A DNA stretch of 64,000 bases from assembly GCA_965216035.1 (NCBI GenBank), contig CBDCFM010000021.1:4236-68235 (forward strand), given 5' to 3'. Below are positions 1 to 26,260 of the stretch, piece after piece. The translations under genes were made by a program, and so were the position numbers. Numbering within the stretch: position 1 is the stretch's first letter; every line of letters starts with the position of its first letter. The stretch comes from Terriglobia bacterium. GTDB lineage: Bacteria > Acidobacteriota > Terriglobia > 20CM-2-55-15. The notes under the pieces are model-generated. The model had not been told where the DNA came from, did no database searches, and worked only from the letters and a program-made list of their open reading frames with translations.

Positions 1-619
1 GGAGCCGCCCGCCACTAACGGGAACTGTCGTTTTCGGACGAGGTCGGCAATCGCGCCGTCTTTGGAAAACGTGGTTTGGGGACCATATAGGCTTCCATAC
101 CTCAAGACCACACCTTCGAGGTCCGACGTCGCCAACACCAGGCGCTCAAGTTCGGGCAAGCGCCTCAACTGTTCGGCGCCAGGGCCAGGACGCGTTGAGC
201 CACAGAGGGGCAGTTTCATCCTGTACGGGTCCGCCCTCGGGGATGTATGCGAACGCGATACTCTGGGCGACAATGCGGCCGACACCTGCCATTGCGGCGG
301 CCTCGACCAGGTTACGGGTGCCCTCGACACGAATTCGGTCGTTTTCCGGGAGCTGGGTTTCGATCTTTCTGGGATCGATGGCTTTGGGTAACGACGTCAG
401 CTCGTGGATGAGTTCCTCAGGCTGCGCCTTTCGCACCGCTTCTTTAAGGCTGCTCAAGTCGTAGACGTTGCATACCACCGCCTGTATGCCGCGCGAAGCA
501 AGCTCTTCGGCCCGAGACACGTTGCGTGTCATCGCGGTTACGGTATGGCCTGCTTCGATCAGGTGGGGTAGGAGCGACCGCCCGATCACGCCGGTCGCAC
601 CAGCAACGAATACTCTCAT
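1..619 (-). pseudogene. NAD(P)-binding SDR/NmrA-like epimerase-type protein; reading frame broken near 146-215 and 3'-partial at the window edge
   Basis: The ORF 146..619 opens with a Rossmann motif (MRVFVAGATGVIGRSL) but stops after 157 aa. The minus-strand continuation in another frame (2..~240) reads ...ELERLVLATSDLEGVVLRYGSLYGPQTTFSKDGAIADLVRKRQFPLVAGG, a typical C-terminal half of this family. This is a frameshift or a sequencing error. Confidence 0.45.
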
Positions 620-622
620 GAC

Positions 623-1063
623 TCACGGCCGCTCTGTTGGCGGCTTGTCTCCGGGCCCCGGCAAGTGGGCTTTTCGTCTCGACCCTGAAACTTCCTGGTC
701 GATCAGCGTTTCCAGATCGGCGTAGGCATAAATGACGGGCGTATTGTTCTGCATGAGTCCACCGGTGTCGGCAGTCGGCCAGTAATTGCTATGCAGGTCC
801 CTGTTGAGCATCCGCAACATGGCCATCTGCTGTCCCCTGTGATGCGCAGTGTGCGCGACTCTCCGCACGAAAACCCAGGCCCGCGACCGTTCCACATTGA
901 AGAACTCGGCCGGTGTCTCCCACCAGTCCTCGCCCTGACTGCGGAGGGCATCCAGTCGCTTTCCGGAGTCGTCCAGGTATCGCTCGATGAAACCGAGGCG
1001 CGTTTCTTCGACAGGCAACGGCGGCGCGGCGACATCGATGTCCAGCATCCGGCAGAACCAGAG
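623..1063 (-). pseudogene. DinB/YfiT-like (DinB_2 family) protein, C-terminal fragment separated from its N-terminus by IS481-family copy 1
   Basis: The flank-encoded part of ORF 623..1105 carries the HxxxH metal-binding motif (VAHTAHHRGQ). Its first 14 codons (MCLDYSVNDVPGRS) are encoded by the IS end. Confidence 0.6.
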
Positions 1064-2381
1064 TGAACGGCCGGGAACATCATTGACAGAATAGTCCAGG
1101 CACATCCTTTACAGTTTGTACCTCTTTCTCATTCTATTCCCCAAAGCATCTTGAATGGTAAAGGTCCGTTCGTCCATTTGTCCGAGACGAACGGTGCCGA
1201 AGTAGACATCCCAGACGCCGTCGTCGACTTCCTCGAGTCCGACGTACTCACCTTCAAGGGTGTGGGTGATTGGAACACGATGGGCCGACCACCGGAATCC
1301 CCCGTTCCGACTGACCAGTCGCGTTTCGAAATGAGACGGATACTCGATGGGAGGCAGGCCCAACGGAAACTCCCGTGAAGAGGTTTGATAGCGGGAGTCG
1401 GGCGTTTCCTGGTCCAGCGCCTCATGGGGACGCACAGTGTTGAATTCCTCAACAAAACGATTGAACCGGAATTGCTGAGCCCGCATCGTGGCCGCTGGCG
1501 GCCGAGTGGTCTCTTGTTTCAAGGTTTTGTGCATGCGTTCGTGTCGGCCGTTTTGATCTGGCCGGCCGGGCTGAATCAATTCGGGGAAGATTCCGAGGCG
1601 GATCCACCAGACCGATAGCCGGCTCAGTCGCCCGATGGCCGTGGTGGCGAACGGCGGCCCGTTATCGGTCCGGATGATTGCAGGGAGACCGAAGTTCCGG
1701 AAGACACTCTTGAATACGGACTTCGCGCGAACATGATTAGTCGAGTAGAGGCCCTTACATGCGAGCAGATACCGGGTGCAACCGTCGGTGATCGTCAACG
1801 GATAGCAATAGATGCCATCCCCAGTTTTAAACTCGCCTTTATAGTCCGCACACCAGACATCATTGGACCGATCCATTGAAGTCACGGGCTTGCCCGGATG
1901 ACCCGGATAGGTGCGTCTCCGCTTCTTCTCCACAAGCCCATGACGTTTCAGCAGTTCCGAGATCGTCGATCGGGCGGGCCAGTCGACCTCGGGATGCCGG
2001 GTATTCAAGATCTTAAGAAGCTTCTTGGCCCCCCAGTGAGGATGTTTGCGGCGCAGATCGATCACCCGCCGCACCACATCGTCTGACGTCCGATGCGGGC
2101 AGCCGACAGGACGACGGGAACGCTCCTCCAATCCGGATTGGCCATTCTCCAAGAATCTGTCAATCCACTTATATCCGGTGGGCCGGCTCACCCCGTAGCG
2201 CGCACACAGTTCGACGATCGAGAAAGATCGAGTAAGATAATCGGCAATAAATAATCGTTTTTGATCCATGGTCGTTGATTGATCCCAGGGCATATGAAGT
2301 CCTCCACGGAGGACTTCATCGTGATCGATCTGTAAACCATGTACCCGGACAGATATGTAAACGATGTACCCGGACCGTACC
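1064..2381 (-). mobile_element. IS481-family insertion sequence, copy 1 (1318 bp) with imperfect ~26-bp terminal inverted repeats and 3-bp target duplication GAG
   Basis: Identical to 51759..53076. The ends TGAACGGCCGGGAACATC... and ...GATGTACCCGGACCGTACC are imperfect inverted repeats. The flanking triplet gag occurs at 1061-1063 and 2382-2384. Confidence 0.85.
1109..2293 (-). CDS. IS481-family DDE transposase (HTH plus rve integrase core)
   Basis: The N-terminal HTH MDQKRLFIADYLTRSFSIVELCARYGVSRPTGYKWIDRF and the integrase-core region are typical of IS481. The start is set at the first Met inside the IS (MPWDQ...), because the ORF-track N-termini of the two copies differ exactly where they extend beyond the IS boundary. 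Confidence 0.85.
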   Translation of the reverse strand: MPWDQSTTMDQKRLFIADYLTRSFSIVELCARYGVSRPTGYKWIDRFLENGQSGLEERSRRPVGCPHRTSDDVVRRVIDLRRKHPHWGAKKLLKILNTRHPEVDWPARSTISELLKRHGLVEKKRRRTYPGHPGKPVTSMDRSNDVWCADYKGEFKTGDGIYCYPLTITDGCTRYLLACKGLYSTNHVRAKSVFKSVFRNFGLPAIIRTDNGPPFATTAIGRLSRLSVWWIRLGIFPELIQPGRPDQNGRHERMHKTLKQETTRPPAATMRAQQFRFNRFVEEFNTVRPHEALDQETPDSRYQTSSREFPLGLPPIEYPSHFETRLVSRNGGFRWSAHRVPITHTLEGEYVGLEEVDDGVWDVYFGTVRLGQMDERTFTIQDALGNRMRKRYKL

Positions 2382-2558
2382 GAGGTCCTCGCTGACACAT
2401 TGGTGCACCATCTGCTCGTGAACGCTTCGACCGCGCGGATCCCCGGCTTGGGGCCGGATCGTCAGATCGTTGTCGTCGAACATGCTCCAGACACTGAGCG
2501 TCTTGAGCCGCTCGGTGTCGTAGGTATCGATCAGGAACTGGTAGCGCACGACACGCAC
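2382..2558 (-). pseudogene. DinB-like protein, N-terminal fragment (probable original start at Met 2483)
   Basis: ...YQFLIDTYDTERLKTLSVWSMFDDNDLTIRPQAGDPRGRSVHEQMVHQCVSEDL matches the DinB_2 N-terminus with its first conserved His. The fragment is in frame with 623..1063 once the IS and one copy of the GAG duplication are removed. Confidence 0.55.
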
Positions 2559-3196
2559 TCCGTATTCACGAAATCGCCTTCGAACGAGTCAGGAGTCAGA
2601 CCTGCGTCGCGAAGCTGAGATTCCAGCCGTGCGACACGATTCTGAAGCTCCCGGACGACGGGCGACATCTCCTCTTCGGTAAAGCGTGACTGGATGTGCT
2701 GCGGGCAGTTCACATCCCAGGCCAGGACCCGAAATACGAGGGCGCGCTCCGGCTTCGCCTGGTATTCCGCGTCGCGAAGGCTGTTCAGCAGTTCAGGGTC
2801 GTCCTCAACGAATTCAGCCTCACCCCAGATCTTGATTCGGCGGCGGTTGGGATAATCCATCAGGAAGATGAACGCCTTGTTGTTCTCGCTCAGGTTGCCC
2901 AGGGAGATGTACTGGGCGTTTCCGGCGAAGTCAGCCAGAGCGAGGGTTCGGTCGTCCAAGATCTTGAGGAAACCCTTCGGGCCTCCCCGATGCTGGATGT
3001 AAGGTTGGCCCGAGGCGTTTGCGGTACCCAGATACAGCGAGTCTCTCTGGGCGATGAAGTCCCGGAGTTCCGGAGTGACAACGTCGGCCCACCCTCCCCT
3101 CTGTTCCATCTTCGAGTAGGAGCGCCGAGACCCCCGAGCGTCCTGGGCCGTTTTGACTGCAGGCGTGAATGCAATGTCGCTGATTGGATGTTCCAT
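2531..3196 (-). CDS. pyridoxamine 5'-phosphate oxidase-like FMN-binding (split-barrel) family protein
   Basis: Family-level resemblance only, with no diagnostic motif checked. The start was moved to the internal Met (MEHPISD) to remove overlap with the upstream hydrolase gene. Confidence 0.55.
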   Translation of the reverse strand: MEHPISDIAFTPAVKTAQDARGSRRSYSKMEQRGGWADVVTPELRDFIAQRDSLYLGTANASGQPYIQHRGGPKGFLKILDDRTLALADFAGNAQYISLGNLSENNKAFIFLMDYPNRRRIKIWGEAEFVEDDPELLNSLRDAEYQAKPERALVFRVLAWDVNCPQHIQSRFTEEEMSPVVRELQNRVARLESQLRDAGLTPDSFEGDFVNTECVSCATSS

Positions 3197-3224: not shown

Positions 3225-4139
3225 TCATGCCACGCTATGGCCACGGTCTCGATGAACCACTTTGCGGTCGAGAAACTCGCGAATTCGCGTTGCAATCACA
3301 TCGCCGTCCTCCTCCAACGCGAAGTGCCCGGTGTCAAGCAGATGGAACTCGAGGTCTTTCAAATCACGTCGATAGGGCTCGGCACCTTCACTGGGGAAGA
3401 TGAAGTCATTCTTTCCCCACACCACAAGCGTCGGTGGTTGTTCGCGCCTGAGAAATTCCTGCCACGCAGGATAGTGCGGTGGGTTCGATCCGTAGTCGTA
3501 GAACAACTGCAACTGGATTTGCTTGTTTCCGGGCCGCTCGAGAAGAAACTGGTCGTGATACCAGTTATCTGGAGCAATCGCTGTTGGATTCCGAACACCG
3601 TGCGTGTACTGCCACCGAGTGGCTTCCAGCGTCAAGAGCGAATCCTGAAGGGTTTTCGCCTGCTCCTCGGACCGGTCTTGCCAGTATGCCTTGATCGGGT
3701 CCCAGAATTCGCGCAGCCCTTCCTCGTAGGCGTTGCCATTCTGAACGATGAGTGCCTCGACGCGCTCCGGATGCTTCAATGCCAGCCGATAGCCGACCGG
3801 GGCTCCATAGTCCATCAGGTACAGACTGTACCGATCTATTCCAAGCTGCGACACGAGTTGGTCGATGACTTCGGCGAAGGTATCAAACGTGTAATCGAAT
3901 TCCTCTGGGCTGGGCATGGAACTTGCCCCGAAACCCGGATAGTCTGGTGCGACGACGTGGAAGCGATCGGAAAGGGCCGGAATCAGGTTCCTAAACATGT
4001 GTGACGATGTCGGGAATCCGTGCAGTAAGAGCACGGTCGGGCCATCCACCGGACCCGCCTCTCGGAAGAAGATGTCGAGATCGCCGACTTTGATCGTGCG
4101 GTGCTGTGTCTGCGTTTTGGGCTTGCCGTCAGTAGACAT
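3225..4139 (-). CDS. alpha/beta-fold hydrolase (epoxide hydrolase / haloalkane dehalogenase-like)
   Basis: The [17 protein letters not shown]... and LMDYGAPVG nucleophile-elbow context is typical of the family, and the length (304 aa) fits. Confidence 0.75.
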
Positions 4140-4200: not shown

Positions 4201-4905
4201 TCAGTTACCGACGGCGACCGCCTCGGTGGCCTGCTGTAGCTTTGCGACGGCCTCTGGGGTCGTCCAGACGGCACTCGCGATATAGCGGTAGTTCACCAGG
4301 GCCGCTTCATAGCCGTCGCCTTCGGGCACTCTCGCCCCGGCGGTGGCGTCTGACACGACGGCGACTTCGAACCCCTGTTCGGTCAACTCCCGCATGTGGC
4401 TCTCGGTGCAGAGATTGGCCGACATCCCGGCCAGTATCACCCGCGAGATTCCACGCTTTCGCAACTGGAGAACCAAATCGTTGGTCTCGGGTCCGAAGAC
4501 TTTATGGGGACTGGCTACAATGGTGTCGCCATCGTTGATATAGGGCTTGTACTGTTCCAGCCAGTCGGCGCCGGAGTTCTCGAAGCCGTCCAGCTTGAGA
4601 GACCCGGCCCGGTCGAACATTCCGATGTTGTGCATCAGGGTTTCCAGCGCCCCCTCGAACTTCCAGCCGTGGTCGGTTGGATAGTAGTAGTGAGGCGAGA
4701 CGAAAACAGGGATACCGGTGGCCTTGGCGGCCTTGAACAGCGACTCGATGTTCGCGACGGTGTTGTTCTCGGTTACGCTCTCACCCACCACACCCCAGGC
4801 CACGCCATCCGGGCTGAGAAAATCGTTCTGCGGATCTGTGATCAGCAGAGCAGTGTTGGAGCTATCAATTTGCATTCCCGGTACGGGTAGAAACGATGAA
4901 GTCAT
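4201..4905 (-). CDS. isochorismatase-family cysteine hydrolase
   Basis: TALLITDPQNDFLSP is the family signature. The start is set at MTSSFLPV (ATG 4905), which has an AGGAGA Shine-Dalgarno 8 nt upstream and lies downstream of the sigma-54 promoter. Confidence 0.75.
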   Translation of the reverse strand: MTSSFLPVPGMQIDSSNTALLITDPQNDFLSPDGVAWGVVGESVTENNTVANIESLFKAAKATGIPVFVSPHYYYPTDHGWKFEGALETLMHNIGMFDRAGSLKLDGFENSGADWLEQYKPYINDGDTIVASPHKVFGPETNDLVLQLRKRGISRVILAGMSANLCTESHMRELTEQGFEVAVVSDATAGARVPEGDGYEAALVNYRYIASAVWTTPEAVAKLQQATEAVAVGN

Positions 4906-4953
4906 GTCAGTGTCTCCTGTTGAGTTGTTGATGTTGCGATCGCCCAACTGACC

Positions 4954-4968
4954 GCAAGTTCACGTCCA
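4954..4968 (-). promoter_or_regulatory. sigma-54 (-24/-12) promoter TGGACG-N5-TTGC driving the isochorismatase / hydrolase / PNPOx (/DinB) operon
   Basis: Minus-strand TGGACGTGAACTTGC has GG and GC separated by exactly 10 bp, as in the TGGCAC-N5-TTGC consensus. It is divergent from a sigma-54 activator gene. Confidence 0.5.
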
Positions 4969-5060
4969 TTTCGATTTGTTCGTGTAACGCATTGTTTTTA
5001 AAATCTTTAAAAGAAATTAGGCTCGCCAGCGATTGGCATGATATTTCGTAGAGATACGAA

Positions 5061-6728
5061 ATGTCGGCAGCCACCAACGATATTTCGATAGAATGGCGCG
5101 CGATGGACACGACCGTATCGAGTTTCAACGCCGACAATATTCGGCAGTTGCTGCTGGACATGGCTCAGGAACGGAGGGTTGACGGTGTATTGTCCCTAGT
5201 GGTTGAAAGAGTGTCGGAGGAATCCGATGTCGCGCTGGCTCGAGTCTGGCTCAAGGGCCCCGGGGACATCTGCAAGGAATGCGGAATGCTACCGGAATGT
5301 CCCGACCAGTCCGAATGCCTGCACCTGGTGGCCAGCGCCGGTCATTCATCCGCCGAGGACGGCCTTCACTGGCAGCGACTGGACGGATCCTTTCGACGGA
5401 TGCCGATGGGTGTTCGCAAGGTCGGCCACATCGCCGCGACAGGAGCACCGGTCGAGATCGCCGACGTTACCGTGGACGGAAAGTGGATCGCCAGGCCCGA
5501 CTGGGTGGCGGCAGAAAAGATCCGGGGATTCGGCGGACAACTGTTAATCCACCAGGGCGACGTCCTCGGCGTCCTGGCGGTATTCGCCCGCTGTGTGATG
5601 ACACACGATAACCTGATATGGCTGCGTATGATCGCCAACCACGCGGCAACCGCCATCGCGAATGCCAGGGCCTTTGAAGAGATCGACCGTCTGCAGAAGC
5701 GCTTGGAAGACGAGAACGAATACTTGCGCGAAGAAGTTCGTGTGGCTCACGGATTCAGCGAAATCATCGGCGAGAGCGCAGCACTGAAGAAGGTGCTGAC
5801 TCAAGTCGAATTGGTGGGCCCGACGGATACGAGTGTTCTCGTGACCGGGGAGTCCGGGACCGGCAAGGAGTTGATTGCCCGGGCGATTCATCAGATCAGC
5901 CGTCGAAGCAGCCAGCCGATGGTCAGCGTCAACTGCGCGTCGATCCCCCGTGAGTTGTTCGAAAGCGAGTTTTTCGGGCACGTCAAGGGGGCTTTCACTG
6001 GTGCGGTTCGAGATCGGGTCGGTCGTTTTCAATTGGCAGACGGCGGAACGATCTTTCTGGACGAAGTGGGAGAGATCCCGATCGAGCTTCAGAGCAAGTT
6101 GCTGCGAGTGCTCCAGGAAGGTGCCTTCGAGCGTGTTGGCGATGATCGAACCCGTCGGATCGACGTCCGGATCGTAGCGGCGACGAACCGAGATCTCAAG
6201 GCCGATGCTGCCGCGGGCCGATTCCGGGAAGATCTCTACTATCGGCTCGGGGTGTTTCTGATCGAGTCCACGCCGCTTCGAGAACGGACTGAGGACATTC
6301 CGCTACTCGCGATGCGATTCGTCCGGGACATCGGTCAGCGCCTGGGTATCCCCACCCCAAAACTGAAACGCCGTCACATTCTGGCACTCAAAGGCTACGG
6401 TTGGCCCGGCAACGTGCGTGAACTCCAGAATGTCATCGAGCGCGCCGTGATCGTTGCGCGGTCAGGAGTCCTGGACTTCAATTTGCCGAATCAGAGCCGG
6501 CCCAGCCACGAATCACGGACAGATAAAGATAGTCGCTCCGGCGTCGTCAACTATGAGGAACTTCATCGGAGGGAACGGGACAATCTGATAGCTGCTCTCA
6601 AAGAGACGAACTGGCGGATTTCTGGCCCCGAGGGTGCGGCCGTGCTTCTTGGCGTTAAACACACGACGCTGGCATCCAAGATCAAGGCGATGAAGATCGA
6701 GCGATCGAACAGGGAACACCGAGATTGA
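5061..6728 (+). CDS. sigma-54-dependent transcriptional activator with N-terminal GAF domain and C-terminal Fis-type HTH
   Basis: Walker [16 protein letters not shown], the sigma-54 contact motif GAFTGA, and a C-terminal HTH ([12 protein letters not shown] ... [11 protein letters not shown]). Confidence 0.85.
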
Positions 6729-7631
6729 CCGCTAGCGATGTATTTCGGCCGGGATAAGCCTCGATCCTACTCACTCTCATTTGTCCTCCATCCCCTTGAG
6801 GACTTCTCAGGGTCTCCCAATAAAACGCTAGGTGCGGTGCCCCGCCGGGTAGACCCGTCTGCCGACACGAGCAGAGAATCGCGCCGCTCGGTAGGCTCGC
6901 CTCTTCCATTTGTGCGCCACCTGAACGGCTCGCATGCTCTTGTAAAACGCCTTGACCTTCGCACGCAGACGAAAGTGCCGAACACTCTCTTTTAAGTGGA
7001 CGCTTCCGGCGCGCCACGGACGCCGAGCCCGTCGACCGTTTTCGAGACGATCCGGAATCACCGCTGTGCTTTCCAGTCCACGGGTCACGCCACGATCCCT
7101 TATACAGAACCCGATACGAACTCCCACGCTTCCTGCTGGCCATTTTTCTGTGCTCCTTTCGTGCTCCATTCCCACGAGTGCAAATGAAGCATTCTTGAAA
7201 ATCAGTGACATACGATGTCCAGAACAGCACGCCATACACGCTATGTAGTTGATTCTCAAACTCCGGCCAGTTTCCCAAGCTGGACGTCGATTCCTACGGT
7301 CCTCCCTTGGGCCACGACTCGTTCGGTCTTTCTTGAGGATCCGAACCGTTCGGTCTCTCGGACAGGATCCTCGGTATTTGGTTTCGGCCTCGAAAGGTCC
7401 GTAGCCCCAGGCCGATTCTATCCCGCCTTTAGTGAGTAGCACCGGGTAGCACCCGGATCTCGCCGGGACGTTCACCGACAACGAACCGGCACTGTATAGG
7501 AAGGGCCGGCTTCGCCCGTCTGTGCGTCCCGACCATCAGTAAAGGCCTTCGGGTGTTATATTTGCTTGTTCGGCCTCTGTCCGGATTGCCCCCTCCGACA
7601 GAGTGTTGTTCACCTTAACAATCGGTCGACC

Positions 7632-24700: not shown

Positions 24701-26260
24701 TTGATGGCAACGAAACGACTACCGATGAGACAGATACGCGAGATTCTACGACTCAAACACGACCAACAGCTCAGCCACCGGGCGATCGCCAGCGCATGTC
24801 GCGTGGGCTTGGGCACCGTTGCGGACTACTTGGGACGGGCCAAGCAGGCCGGACTGGAATGGCCGCTGCCCGAAGACCTGGACGAGGCAGCGCTTGAAGC
24901 GCGGCTGTTTCCCCGCGCGGGACCGGGCTCCCGGGAACGGGTGGCTCCGGATGTAGAACGGATCCACCAGGAGTTGAAGCGTGTTGGAGTCACCCTGCAC
25001 CTGCTGTGGGAAGAGTACCGAGAAGCGAATCCAAAGGGATATGCCTACAGCCAGTTCTGTGAGATCTACCGGCGTTGGGCCCAGAAATTGAAGCCCTCGA
25101 TGCGACAGGTGCACCGCGCCGGAGAGAAGACCTTCATCGACTTTTCCGGCAAACGGCCACAGCTGACGGATCCACGGACGGGCAAAGCTATTCCAGTCGA
25201 GTTGTTCGTCGCTGTTCTGGGCGCCAGCGGTTACACCTACGCGGAAGCGACACCGAGCCAGAAACTCCCCGATTGGGTCGGCGTGCATATCCGCATGGTG
25301 GAGTTCTTCGGCGGATCGAGCCGGATCTGGGTTCCCGACCAACTCAAGAGTGCCATTACCCAGCCCTGCCGCTATGAAGCAGGCGTCAACCGTACCTACC
25401 AGGATGAGGCCGAACACTACGGCGCCGTTGTCATACCGGCCCGACCGCGGAAAGCTCGGGACAAAGCGAAAGTTGAATCGACCGTCCTGGTCGCACAGCG
25501 GTGGATCCTGGCCAGGATCCGGAATCGCACGTTCTTCAGTCTGGCCGACTTGAACGGAGCCATTCGAGAGTTGCTGGTGGAACTGAACCAGCGGCCGATG
25601 CAGAAGCTTCGAGTATCCCGCCTGGAACTCTACGAGCGGCTGGATCGACCGGCATTACAGCCCCTCCCGACCAACCGGTATGAACAGGCCGAGTGGAAGG
25701 ACTGTCGTGTCAGCATCGATTACCACATTACCGTGGACCGCCATCCTTACAGCGTGCCCTGCCAGTTGATCCATGAGAGGGTGGAAGCACGTTACACGGC
25801 GTCCATTGTCGAGGTCTACTACAAAGGCCGGCGCGTGACGTCCCATCGCCGTCGCTACGATCACAAGCCGTCGACTCTGTCCGAACATATGCCCAGTGCC
25901 CATCGGGCCCATGCGGAATGGACACCGTCCCGGCTGATTAGTTGGGCGGAGAAAACTGGCCCCAAGACCGGCCGCCTGGTCGAGGAGATCATGAAACGGT
26001 GGCCGCATCCGGAACAGGGGTACCGGGCCTGCCTGGGATTGATGAGTCTAGGTCGCCGCTCCGGCGCCGAGCGGCTCGAAGCCGCCAGTGCGCGGGCGCT
26101 GCACTTGCAGTCCTATAGCTACCGCACCGTCAAGAACATCCTGTCGTCGGCCCAGGACCGGTTGCCTTTCGGGGACACCGAAACCCCACCGACGCCCCAT
26201 CACGACAACATTCGCGGCGCCGCCTACTATGCGGACCCCGAGGAGACGCACTCATGCTAA
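24701..26260 (+). CDS. istA: IS21-family transposase IstA
   Basis: N-terminal HTH MRQIREILRLKHDQQLSHRAIASA and the IstA integrase core, 519 aa. Confidence 0.85.
   Translation: MMATKRLPMRQIREILRLKHDQQLSHRAIASACRVGLGTVADYLGRAKQAGLEWPLPEDLDEAALEARLFPRAGPGSRERVAPDVERIHQELKRVGVTLHLLWEEYREANPKGYAYSQFCEIYRRWAQKLKPSMRQVHRAGEKTFIDFSGKRPQLTDPRTGKAIPVELFVAVLGASGYTYAEATPSQKLPDWVGVHIRMVEFFGGSSRIWVPDQLKSAITQPCRYEAGVNRTYQDEAEHYGAVVIPARPRKARDKAKVESTVLVAQRWILARIRNRTFFSLADLNGAIRELLVELNQRPMQKLRVSRLELYERLDRPALQPLPTNRYEQAEWKDCRVSIDYHITVDRHPYSVPCQLIHERVEARYTASIVEVYYKGRRVTSHRRRYDHKPSTLSEHMPSAHRAHAEWTPSRLISWAEKTGPKTGRLVEEIMKRWPHPEQGYRACLGLMSLGRRSGAERLEAASARALHLQSYSYRTVKNILSSAQDRLPFGDTETPPTPHHDNIRGAAYYADPEETHSC

Follow-up and report, generated by a model that had tools for sequence, protein, structure and literature searches.

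A putative bidirectional sigma-54 control region between an isochorismatase-family operon and a divergent GAF-domain activator in a Terriglobia bacterium

The stretch of DNA analysed here (the window) comprises 64,000 nt of contig CBDCFM010000021.1 from a Terriglobia bacterium (GCA_965216035.1), and all positions refer to the full window. Two divergent genes are separated in it by a 197-nt interval (4906–5102). On the minus strand, a 234-aa isochorismatase-family (cysteine) hydrolase is encoded at 4201–4905 (PF00857, 1.7e-28) and is the first gene of an operon; on the plus strand, a 541-aa enhancer-binding protein is encoded at 5103–6728, with a GAF domain carrying a four-cysteine (Cys4) loop, a sigma-54 AAA+ domain and a marginal Fis-type helix–turn–helix (HTH). 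The original prediction placed a sigma-54 promoter and candidate activator sites between these genes. Comparison with approximately 95 related loci suggests that the interval probably controls transcription in both directions as part of a one-component sigma-54 switch, in which the activator would drive the operon from a degenerate promoter and would also regulate its own gene.

The candidate sigma-54 promoter, TGGACGTGAACTTGC, lies on the minus strand (4968→4954) with GG at −24/−25 and GC at −12/−13; the motif and the GG-N10-GC spacing originally reported are both present. Described at first as a match to TGGCAC-N5-TTGC, the site fits at TGG and TTGC, but its −24 flank is non-canonical, with ACG for CAC. 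Relative to the extended consensus yTGGCACGrnnnTTGCw, TGG and TTGC are kept and ACGT replaces CACG. Judged by sequence alone, the motif does not stand out from chance. The window contains 9 instances of TGG-N8-TTGC as against 8.17 ± 2.89 in shuffled sequences, and TGGCAC-N5-TTGC with up to three mismatches, which has no discriminating power, occurs 492 times as against 494 expected. Approximately 0.7 sites as good as this one are expected per 200-nt intergenic strand. The promoter scan that had been proposed, run here with a position weight matrix built from 40 promoters of related loci (the family matrix), gave the site 1.0 bit, far weaker than had been implied.

The highest family-matrix scores in the window are found elsewhere, at 24855 (12.3 bits), 3912 (10.8 bits) and 8492 (10.5 bits), all on the plus strand. 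At least two of these sites lie inside long open reading frames (ORFs), 3912 within the alpha/beta-hydrolase gene of the operon and 8492 within a proB-like ORF, and none has a cluster of the dyads described below upstream of it. These matches are probably due to chance.

A sigma-54 promoter at 4968→4954 would be predicted to start transcription at 4941–4943 on the minus strand, approximately 12 nt past the −12 C according to the usual spacing, which would give a 5′ untranslated region of approximately 37 nt. A Shine–Dalgarno sequence, AGGAGA, is located at 4918→4913 on the same strand, 36 nt past the promoter motif and 7 nt before the ATG at 4905→4903 that opens the isochorismatase-family ORF, just as first described. 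Around the Shine–Dalgarno sequence and start codon, AGGAGACA..TGA.ATGAC is kept in two close relatives (L091 and L093).

The related loci come from several searches. A scan of one genome per species returned 80 loci, labelled as Acidobacteriota, Planctomycetota, Verrucomicrobiota, Myxococcota, Nitrospirota, Desulfuromonadales/Desulfovibrionaceae and others, with activators 46–64 % identical to that of the window. A protein search with contig look-ups added closer relatives, whose activators are 87, 71, 69, 67, 66, 66 and 65 % identical (L091 and L093–L098); their contigs carry the same divergent genes as the window, and some of the operons end in DinB and thioredoxin genes. A metagenome scan with the GAF domain returned only relatives of 54–58 % identity, of no use for a close-range footprint. 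The near-identical contigs L081–L083 were rejected as a conservation test because they are too close to the window. One of them, L082, is from a sister strain and differs from the window at approximately nine positions, none of which is a consensus position, a result that is not significant (p ~0.18); its promoter sequence is identical to that of the window.

Approximately 45 of the 80 scan loci have an obvious TGGCACG-N4-TGC on the strand opposite to the activator gene, at a distance of 120–160 nt upstream of it. Among 18 loci picked solely for having three dyads and used for geometry, the best sigma-54 match falls 73–77 nt past the proximal dyad in 16. The window TGG lies exactly 75 nt past the centre of its proximal dyad, within this family mode, and only approximately 0.02 sites of 1.0 bit or more would be expected in the 5-nt interval so predicted. 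The corresponding elements of the close relatives read TGGACGCGAATTTGC in L091 (activator 87 % identical), TGGACGCCGACGTGT in L093 (71 %), TGGACACCGGCGTGT in L094 (69 %), TGGCTCGCCAGATGC in L096 (67 %), TGGCCCACAAGATGC in L095 (66 %), CGGCCCACAAGATGC in L097 (66 %) and TGGCCCAGTAACTGC in L098 (65 %). Throughout these loci and the window, GG and TG(C/T) are constant, the leading T is present in all but L097 (a CGGCCC...TGC form), and the bases between vary. L095, L096 and L098 have TGGCCC or TGGCTC...TGC. The TGGAC...TG(C/T) variant is kept in L091, L093 and L094, and on this alignment TGGAC is a feature of the window clade, found in otherwise intact loci. A similar weak form, TGGATAGC-N4-GTGTA, is found with the same geometry in two Bryobacterales loci (L001 and L003).

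The window element is thus very probably a true, positionally orthologous promoter, degenerate yet retained: a predicted sigma-54 site that is probably weak. It is position and phylogenetic retention, not the quality of the motif, that make the promoter assignment probably right. The proposal that a sigma-54 promoter located here directs the isochorismatase operon, with the cognate GAF activator encoded divergently, is supported; most relatives hold a strong TGGCACG-N4-TGC at this position.

Substitutions are also seen at −12. GT is found for GC in L001, L003, L093 and L094 with the geometry conserved (for example TGGATAGC-N4-GTGTA and TGGACGCCGACGTGTA); non-canonical −24 and −12 forms thus recur in the regulon.

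Upstream of the family promoters, the conserved unit is a 12-bp dyad, ACGA-N4-TCGT, with an A/T-rich centre and present in two or three copies. Centre-to-centre spacings in the 18 three-dyad loci are 21–23 and 17–19 nt, and in the window 21 and 18 nt; the centres are 115, 93 and 75 nt upstream of TGG in the family and 114, 93 and 75 nt upstream in the window. The distal upstream activator sequence (UAS1, ACGATATTTCGA) is located at 5077–5088, centred at 114 nt, and ends 14 nt before ATG 5103. The middle site (UAS2, ACGAAATGTCGG) is located at 5056–5067, centred at 93 nt, and contains ATG 5061, and the proximal site (UAS3, ATGATATTTCGT) at 5038–5049, centred at 75 nt, with one mismatch to ACGA-N4-TCGT. 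Allowing up to one mismatch, 18 such dyads occur in the 64 kb, and these three all fall within 51 bp. The three dyads are predicted activator sites, which the activator would be expected to bind.

A palindrome, TTTCGTA-GAGA-TACGAAA, had been put forward as one of the activator sites. It exists, but five bases to the right of the place first given (5044–5061, not 5039–5056), and while the region is right, the palindrome joins the right half of one dyad to the left half of the next. Bases between dyads, including its GAGA centre, vary across the family. The third dyad (5077–5088) had been taken for part of the coding region and so was overlooked.

Between the dyads and the promoter, 44 family loci aligned on TGG share only the columns A-41, A-40, TTT at −34 to −32, A-29, T-28, T-20 and T-19. 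A-29, T-28, T-20 and T-19 fit the register of the consensus for integration host factor (IHF), WATCAANNNNTTR, and the remaining columns fit the A/T tract that commonly flanks IHF cores. In the window, an IHF-like core, AAACAATGCGTTA, is located at 4997→4985 on the minus strand and matches the consensus at 8/9 specified positions; its CAA starts 26 nt upstream of TGG, and CAA-N4-TTR begins at −25 to −27 in many family loci. The adjoining A/T-rich tract (4995–5019, 90 % A+T) includes TTTTAAAATCTTTAAAA (4996–5012). This second palindrome of the original prediction is present; however, it is not conserved as a palindrome. The family has raised A+T at −50 to −20 and no conserved palindrome there. 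The tract with TTTTAAAATCTTTAAAA is probably a bending element upstream of the IHF-like core rather than a site for the activator, and the use of IHF itself is presumed.

The activator gene appears to start later than annotated. Gene callers open it at ATG 5061 on the plus strand, which gives 555 aa. ATG 5103 (541 aa) is to be read instead, as homologues are 535–545 aa long and start where residue 15 of the longer form would be. The middle dyad contains ATG 5061, and L091 has ATA in place of this codon, with a stop further on in the same frame. No Shine–Dalgarno sequence precedes ATG 5103. A −10-like hexamer, TAGAAT (5089–5094, plus strand), abuts UAS1 and lies 8 nt before this ATG, and a TAnnnT hexamer is found 6–8 nt before the start codon, right after the distal dyad, in the window, L091 and L093–L097. 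The activator mRNA is probably leaderless, or nearly so, and read from a sigma-70-type promoter. The dyads overlap this presumed promoter, with the distal dyad in its spacer, so that binding of the activator would be expected to shut off its own expression; the gene is probably autoregulated, presumably by autorepression.

Pfam matches bear out the proposed GAF and sigma-54 AAA+ domains of the activator. The N-terminal GAF domain (PF01590, 7.4e-10) is followed by Sigma54_activat (PF00158, 6.3e-71) and an AAA lid domain; Walker A (GESGTGKE) and GAFTGA motifs are present, and Foldseek gives a template-modelling (TM) score of 0.85–0.93 to the central domains of FleQ, FlrC and NtrC1. The C-terminal Fis-type HTH_8 match is marginal, at 21.7 bits (E 1.7e-4) against a cutoff of 22; many homologues carry PF02954 on record.

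Within the GAF domain, C57, C60, C66 and C72 (541-aa numbering) form a C-x2-C-x5-C-x5-C loop and are invariant in 68 aligned homologues of 57–87 % identity; H74 is nearly invariant in the same set. The four cysteines are conserved in a more distant genome set too. In the AlphaFold model (full-length predicted local distance difference test, pLDDT, 83), the cysteines are placed in a loop between two GAF beta-strands; an AlphaFold2 model of the GAF domain alone (residues 1–181) has a pLDDT of 87 and a predicted TM score (pTM) of 0.87. Fold searches returned a generic GAF fold, the best being the PtsP GAF domain (TM ~0.6), with PDB matches including 3trc and fRMsr. No solved structure with the Cys loop was among these GAF matches, and the fold search did not identify the ligand by structure; when the GAF sequence was searched against the PDB, a weak match to PtsP was all that was returned. 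The C-x2-C-x5-C spacing is that of the [4Fe–4S] cluster ligands of FNR and WhiB-like proteins, which is a lead rather than a test.

Targets of the family were collected by clustering 205 ORFs downstream of its promoters. The two commonest clusters are alpha/beta-hydrolases (29 members, with some isochorismatase ORFs absorbed) and AhpD-like CMD proteins, the latter being the first gene in 24 loci. Other clusters are DUF1348 (19), PNPOx-like (12), thioredoxin (7) and MOSC (6), and further ones are DinB, DJ-1/PfpI, nitroreductase, YHS-domain protein, RND adaptor and isochorismatase; no AhpC or catalase was seen among the clustered targets. Homologues of the window hydrolase, PNPOx, isochorismatase or DinB proteins are found near the activator in approximately 40 of the 80 scan loci, mostly upstream and divergent, and isochorismatase homologues are divergent from the activator in L018, L025, L032, L044, L065, L066, L070, L073, L075 and L091–L096. 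From its gene content, the family regulon is of the kind that responds to stress by thiols, oxidants or electrophiles. The activator had been thought to answer to an unnamed GAF ligand. Because of the invariant cysteines and this stress-type regulon, a metal/thiol redox switch is preferred to a small-molecule ligand; oxidation, nitrosylation or alkylation at a metal/thiol centre of the Cys loop is the more likely signal.

Among characterised systems, the nearest analogue is PexR of Myxococcus xanthus (MXAN_1565), a one-component GAF-AAA+-HTH enhancer-binding protein whose GAF domain, loaded with Zn or Fe, is inhibitory until H2O2 releases the metal (NAR 2025; PMC12754779). PexR was shown experimentally to bind three tandem interrupted dyads upstream of sigma-54 promoters; the pexR gene is itself divergent and probably leaderless, with a sigma-A-type promoter overlapping the repeats, and a sigma-A promoter at ahpC, which overlaps the PexR repeats there, is repressed by PexR (PMC12754779). 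The window system is alike in domain order, in having three dyads with a predicted sigma-54 promoter, in its divergent, probably leaderless activator gene and in its stress-detoxification targets. The repeats differ, being CACCG-n6-CGGTG for PexR and ACGA-N4-TCGT in the window, and no match to the PexR repeat with up to two mismatches was found in 4721–5458. The published metal ligands of PexR are H102, H120, C122 and D140, whereas the window protein has the C-x2-C-x5-C-x5-C loop; PexR targets ahpC, katB and ccp, as against isochorismatase, alpha/beta-hydrolase and PNPOx genes here. Membership of the window activator in the PexR group was rejected because repeat sequence and targets differ. 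A myxobacterial member of the window subfamily (L045) exists beside PexR, which points to two paralogous lines.

The sigma-70-like match over the window dyads, CCGACA-18-TATCAT (5067→5038, minus strand), resembles the sigma-A promoter inside the PexR repeats at ahpC. It agrees with consensus at 9/12 positions and overlaps the middle and proximal activator sites; approximately 0.5 such matches are expected by chance in the region.

The group III activators NorR, FhlA and NifA share the domain order of the window protein and a GAF domain that negatively controls AAA+, as is proposed here, but are without the Cys4 loop and have other target genes. Upstream of norV there are three NorR-binding sites, every one of which NorR requires; its metal centre is mononuclear iron, and FhlA differs in having two GAF domains. 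Membership in these groups was rejected on NCBIfam scores (FhlA 405 vs 830, NorR 369 vs 476, NifA 369 vs 529), and none of the NCBIfam equivalogs, these and others included, reaches its cutoff for the window activator. VnfA and AnfA of Azotobacter and OrpR of Desulfovibrio are sigma-54 activators with a sensory cysteine cluster that is thought, or has been shown, to bind Fe–S for redox sensing. The Cys motif is at the extreme N-terminus in VnfA and AnfA (C-x-C-x4-C) and in a PAS domain in OrpR, whereas here it is in a loop between GAF beta-strands, and their regulons (nitrogenase and orp genes) are unlike the window targets. Canonical sigma-54 promoters of the glnAp2, nifH and pspA type, whose activator regions are IHF-assisted, have GG-N10-GC, activator sites approximately 75–115 nt upstream and an IHF-like A/T element between, as in the window; their flank is TGGCAC and the −24 flank of the window site is TGGACG.

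Taken together, the interval 4906–5102 probably works as follows. Activator dimers would bind the three tandem ACGA-N4-TCGT dyads at 114, 93 and 75 nt upstream, and the A/T tract and IHF-like core (at approximately −26) would bend the DNA so that the AAA+ ring touches sigma-54 polymerase at TGGACG-N5-TTGC. Promoter opening would follow from ATP hydrolysis, with transcription of the isochorismatase, alpha/beta-hydrolase and PNPOx genes starting at approximately 4942; the transcript would originally have extended to the DinB gene as well. As the dyads overlap its sigma-70-type promoter (−10 TAGAAT, 5089–5094), the activator would repress itself. Modification of the metal/thiol centre of the Cys loop would relieve the inhibition of AAA+ by GAF, as in PexR and NorR.

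A broader possibility is held more tentatively. The window activator may belong to a large uncharacterised subfamily, with members in both metagenome-assembled and other genomes, in which a Cys4 GAF loop, with Fe–S or Zn, serves as a direct sensor of oxidants, nitric oxide or electrophiles and governs a conserved detoxification regulon through a rigid enhancer in which three dyads are combined with an IHF-like site and a sigma-54 promoter; this reading is slightly less likely than not.

Several observations weigh against a functional sigma-54 switch in the window or against parts of it. The window site scores 1.0 bit on the family matrix and the family sites 5.0–21.8 (median 17.1), a gap that is real though somewhat exaggerated, as the matrix sites were picked by a permissive regular expression favouring canonical forms. 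A further 469 window positions score as high or higher (rank 470th of 127,954), and all four bases after TGG (ACGT) are unlike the family consensus CACG. The sigma-70-like CCGACA-18-TATCAT points toward the isochorismatase operon, and that operon carries an insertion sequence (IS), so that the locus may be decaying. The Fis-type HTH of the window protein is just below its Pfam cutoff (21.7 vs 22). The rpoN, ihfA/B and HU genes were not found by motif (RpoN-box included) within the 64-kb window, and no experimental study of the activator subfamily or its regulon was found in the literature searched. The idea of an Fe–S, Zn or thiol switch draws on cysteine spacing and analogy.

The low score, set against the family median, and the IS481-family element that splits DinB in the same operon would both suit a relic, that is, a positional descendant of the family promoter that has drifted from TGGCAC to TGGACG and is inactive, the operon being silent or read from elsewhere. 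This is unlikely. TGGAC is common to relatives with activators 69–87 % identical, whose operons are intact, including DinB and thioredoxin in L093 and L094, so the variant looks like retention rather than recent decay. The window itself shows no damage to the activator or its three dyads, to the IHF-like core or to the three upstream ORFs, and the sister strain without the IS has an identical promoter. A match by chance is somewhat less likely still. The operon would then be read by a sigma-70-type promoter in or near the dyads (CCGACA-18-TATCAT, 5067→5038), and the activator would act only as a repressor or be idle. That the pattern frequency equals expectation is in keeping with this, as is the minus-strand sigma-70-like match over UAS2 and UAS3, and the repression by PexR of an overlapping sigma-A promoter at ahpC (PMC12754779) makes a dual arrangement possible. 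However, such sites are expected at a rate of only ~0.02 in the 5-nt predicted interval, TGG and TG(C/T) are fixed in four diverged relatives while the 7–8 nt between them change, and the sigma-70-like match, at 9/12, is itself of a quality expected 0.5 times by chance in the region.

The arrangement first proposed, in which the activator binds TTTTAAAATCTTTAAAA and TTTCGTA-GAGA-TACGAAA and senses a small molecule in its GAF pocket, is very improbable. Both palindromes do exist and the second overlaps conserved sites, and the GAF domains of NifA, FhlA and phosphodiesterases are established binders of small molecules. Yet the conserved unit is three ACGA-N4-TCGT dyads at fixed spacing, the GAGA centre is not conserved, the A/T palindrome is not conserved as such, and the four invariant cysteines with the redox-type regulon favour a metal/thiol sensor.

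If the sigma-54 switch with its metal/thiol sensor is borne out, it would add to PexR a second redox switch of independent origin that is based on a GAF domain, and the lineage here would tolerate TGGAC as a non-canonical −24 element; the variant offers a natural test of the extent to which sigma-54 depends on this element. For the window, a statistically unconvincing motif becomes a well-placed element, and the gene start, binding sites and operon structure are corrected. For the subfamily, which is widespread, the comparison defines a binding motif, an enhancer geometry, a four-Cys sensory signature and a core regulon. Its members belong to hard-to-culture soil and sediment phyla in which stress regulation is largely unknown; cultivable ones include Chthoniobacter flavus Ellin428, Trichlorobacter thiogenes, Pyxidicoccus and Desulfogranum japonicum.

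Downstream of the isochorismatase gene, the operon continues on the minus strand with an alpha/beta-hydrolase (3225–4139, 304 aa; haloalkane-dehalogenase-like by weak NCBIfam matches) and a PNPOx-like flavin mononucleotide-binding protein (2531–3196, 221 aa). Of the four-gene operon first described, these three genes are intact, but the fourth, DinB, is split by an IS481-family element (1064–2378, minus strand) into a 5′ fragment (2379–2549, minus strand), which is cut off by the IS, and a 3′ fragment (623–1063, minus strand). The element has imperfect 44-nt terminal inverted repeats at 1071–1114 and 2330–2373. Its transposase ORF (1109–2398, minus strand) has Pfam matches to rve, rve_3 and LZ_Tnp_IS481, and scores 214 bits on the IS481 model NF033577, slightly under the cutoff of 224. 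In the sister strain (L082) the IS site is empty, and the DinB gene there is uninterrupted (201 aa) and matches DinB and DinB_2. As to a target-site duplication, the 7-nt BLAST overlap at the IS is not an exact repeat.

Variation among the operons of the relatives is also apparent. Isochorismatase and alpha/beta-hydrolase are fused into proteins of 588–589 aa in L093 (2027–3793) and L094 (2025–3794), and the hydrolase of L091 (1358–3046, 562 aa) has an extra T4-deiodinase/redoxin-like domain. The isochorismatases of L093–L097 (for example L095, 3055–3810) have a hydrophobic, signal-peptide-like N-terminus, which the window protein is without.

Downstream of DinB, an NmrA/epimerase-like ORF (146–619, minus strand) is just 157 aa long. 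In L082 a second epimerase-like ORF (5965–6705) follows directly after the first, and the window ORF may represent a gene that is split or carries a frameshift. Neither the Rfam scan nor the tRNA scan gave a match anywhere in the 64-kb window. On the other side, the stretch of approximately 840 nt from the activator stop to the proB-like gene (6729–7565) has no Pfam-recognisable ORF and no Rfam or tRNA match; in L082, a 235-aa hypothetical protein is called in the stretch matching it.

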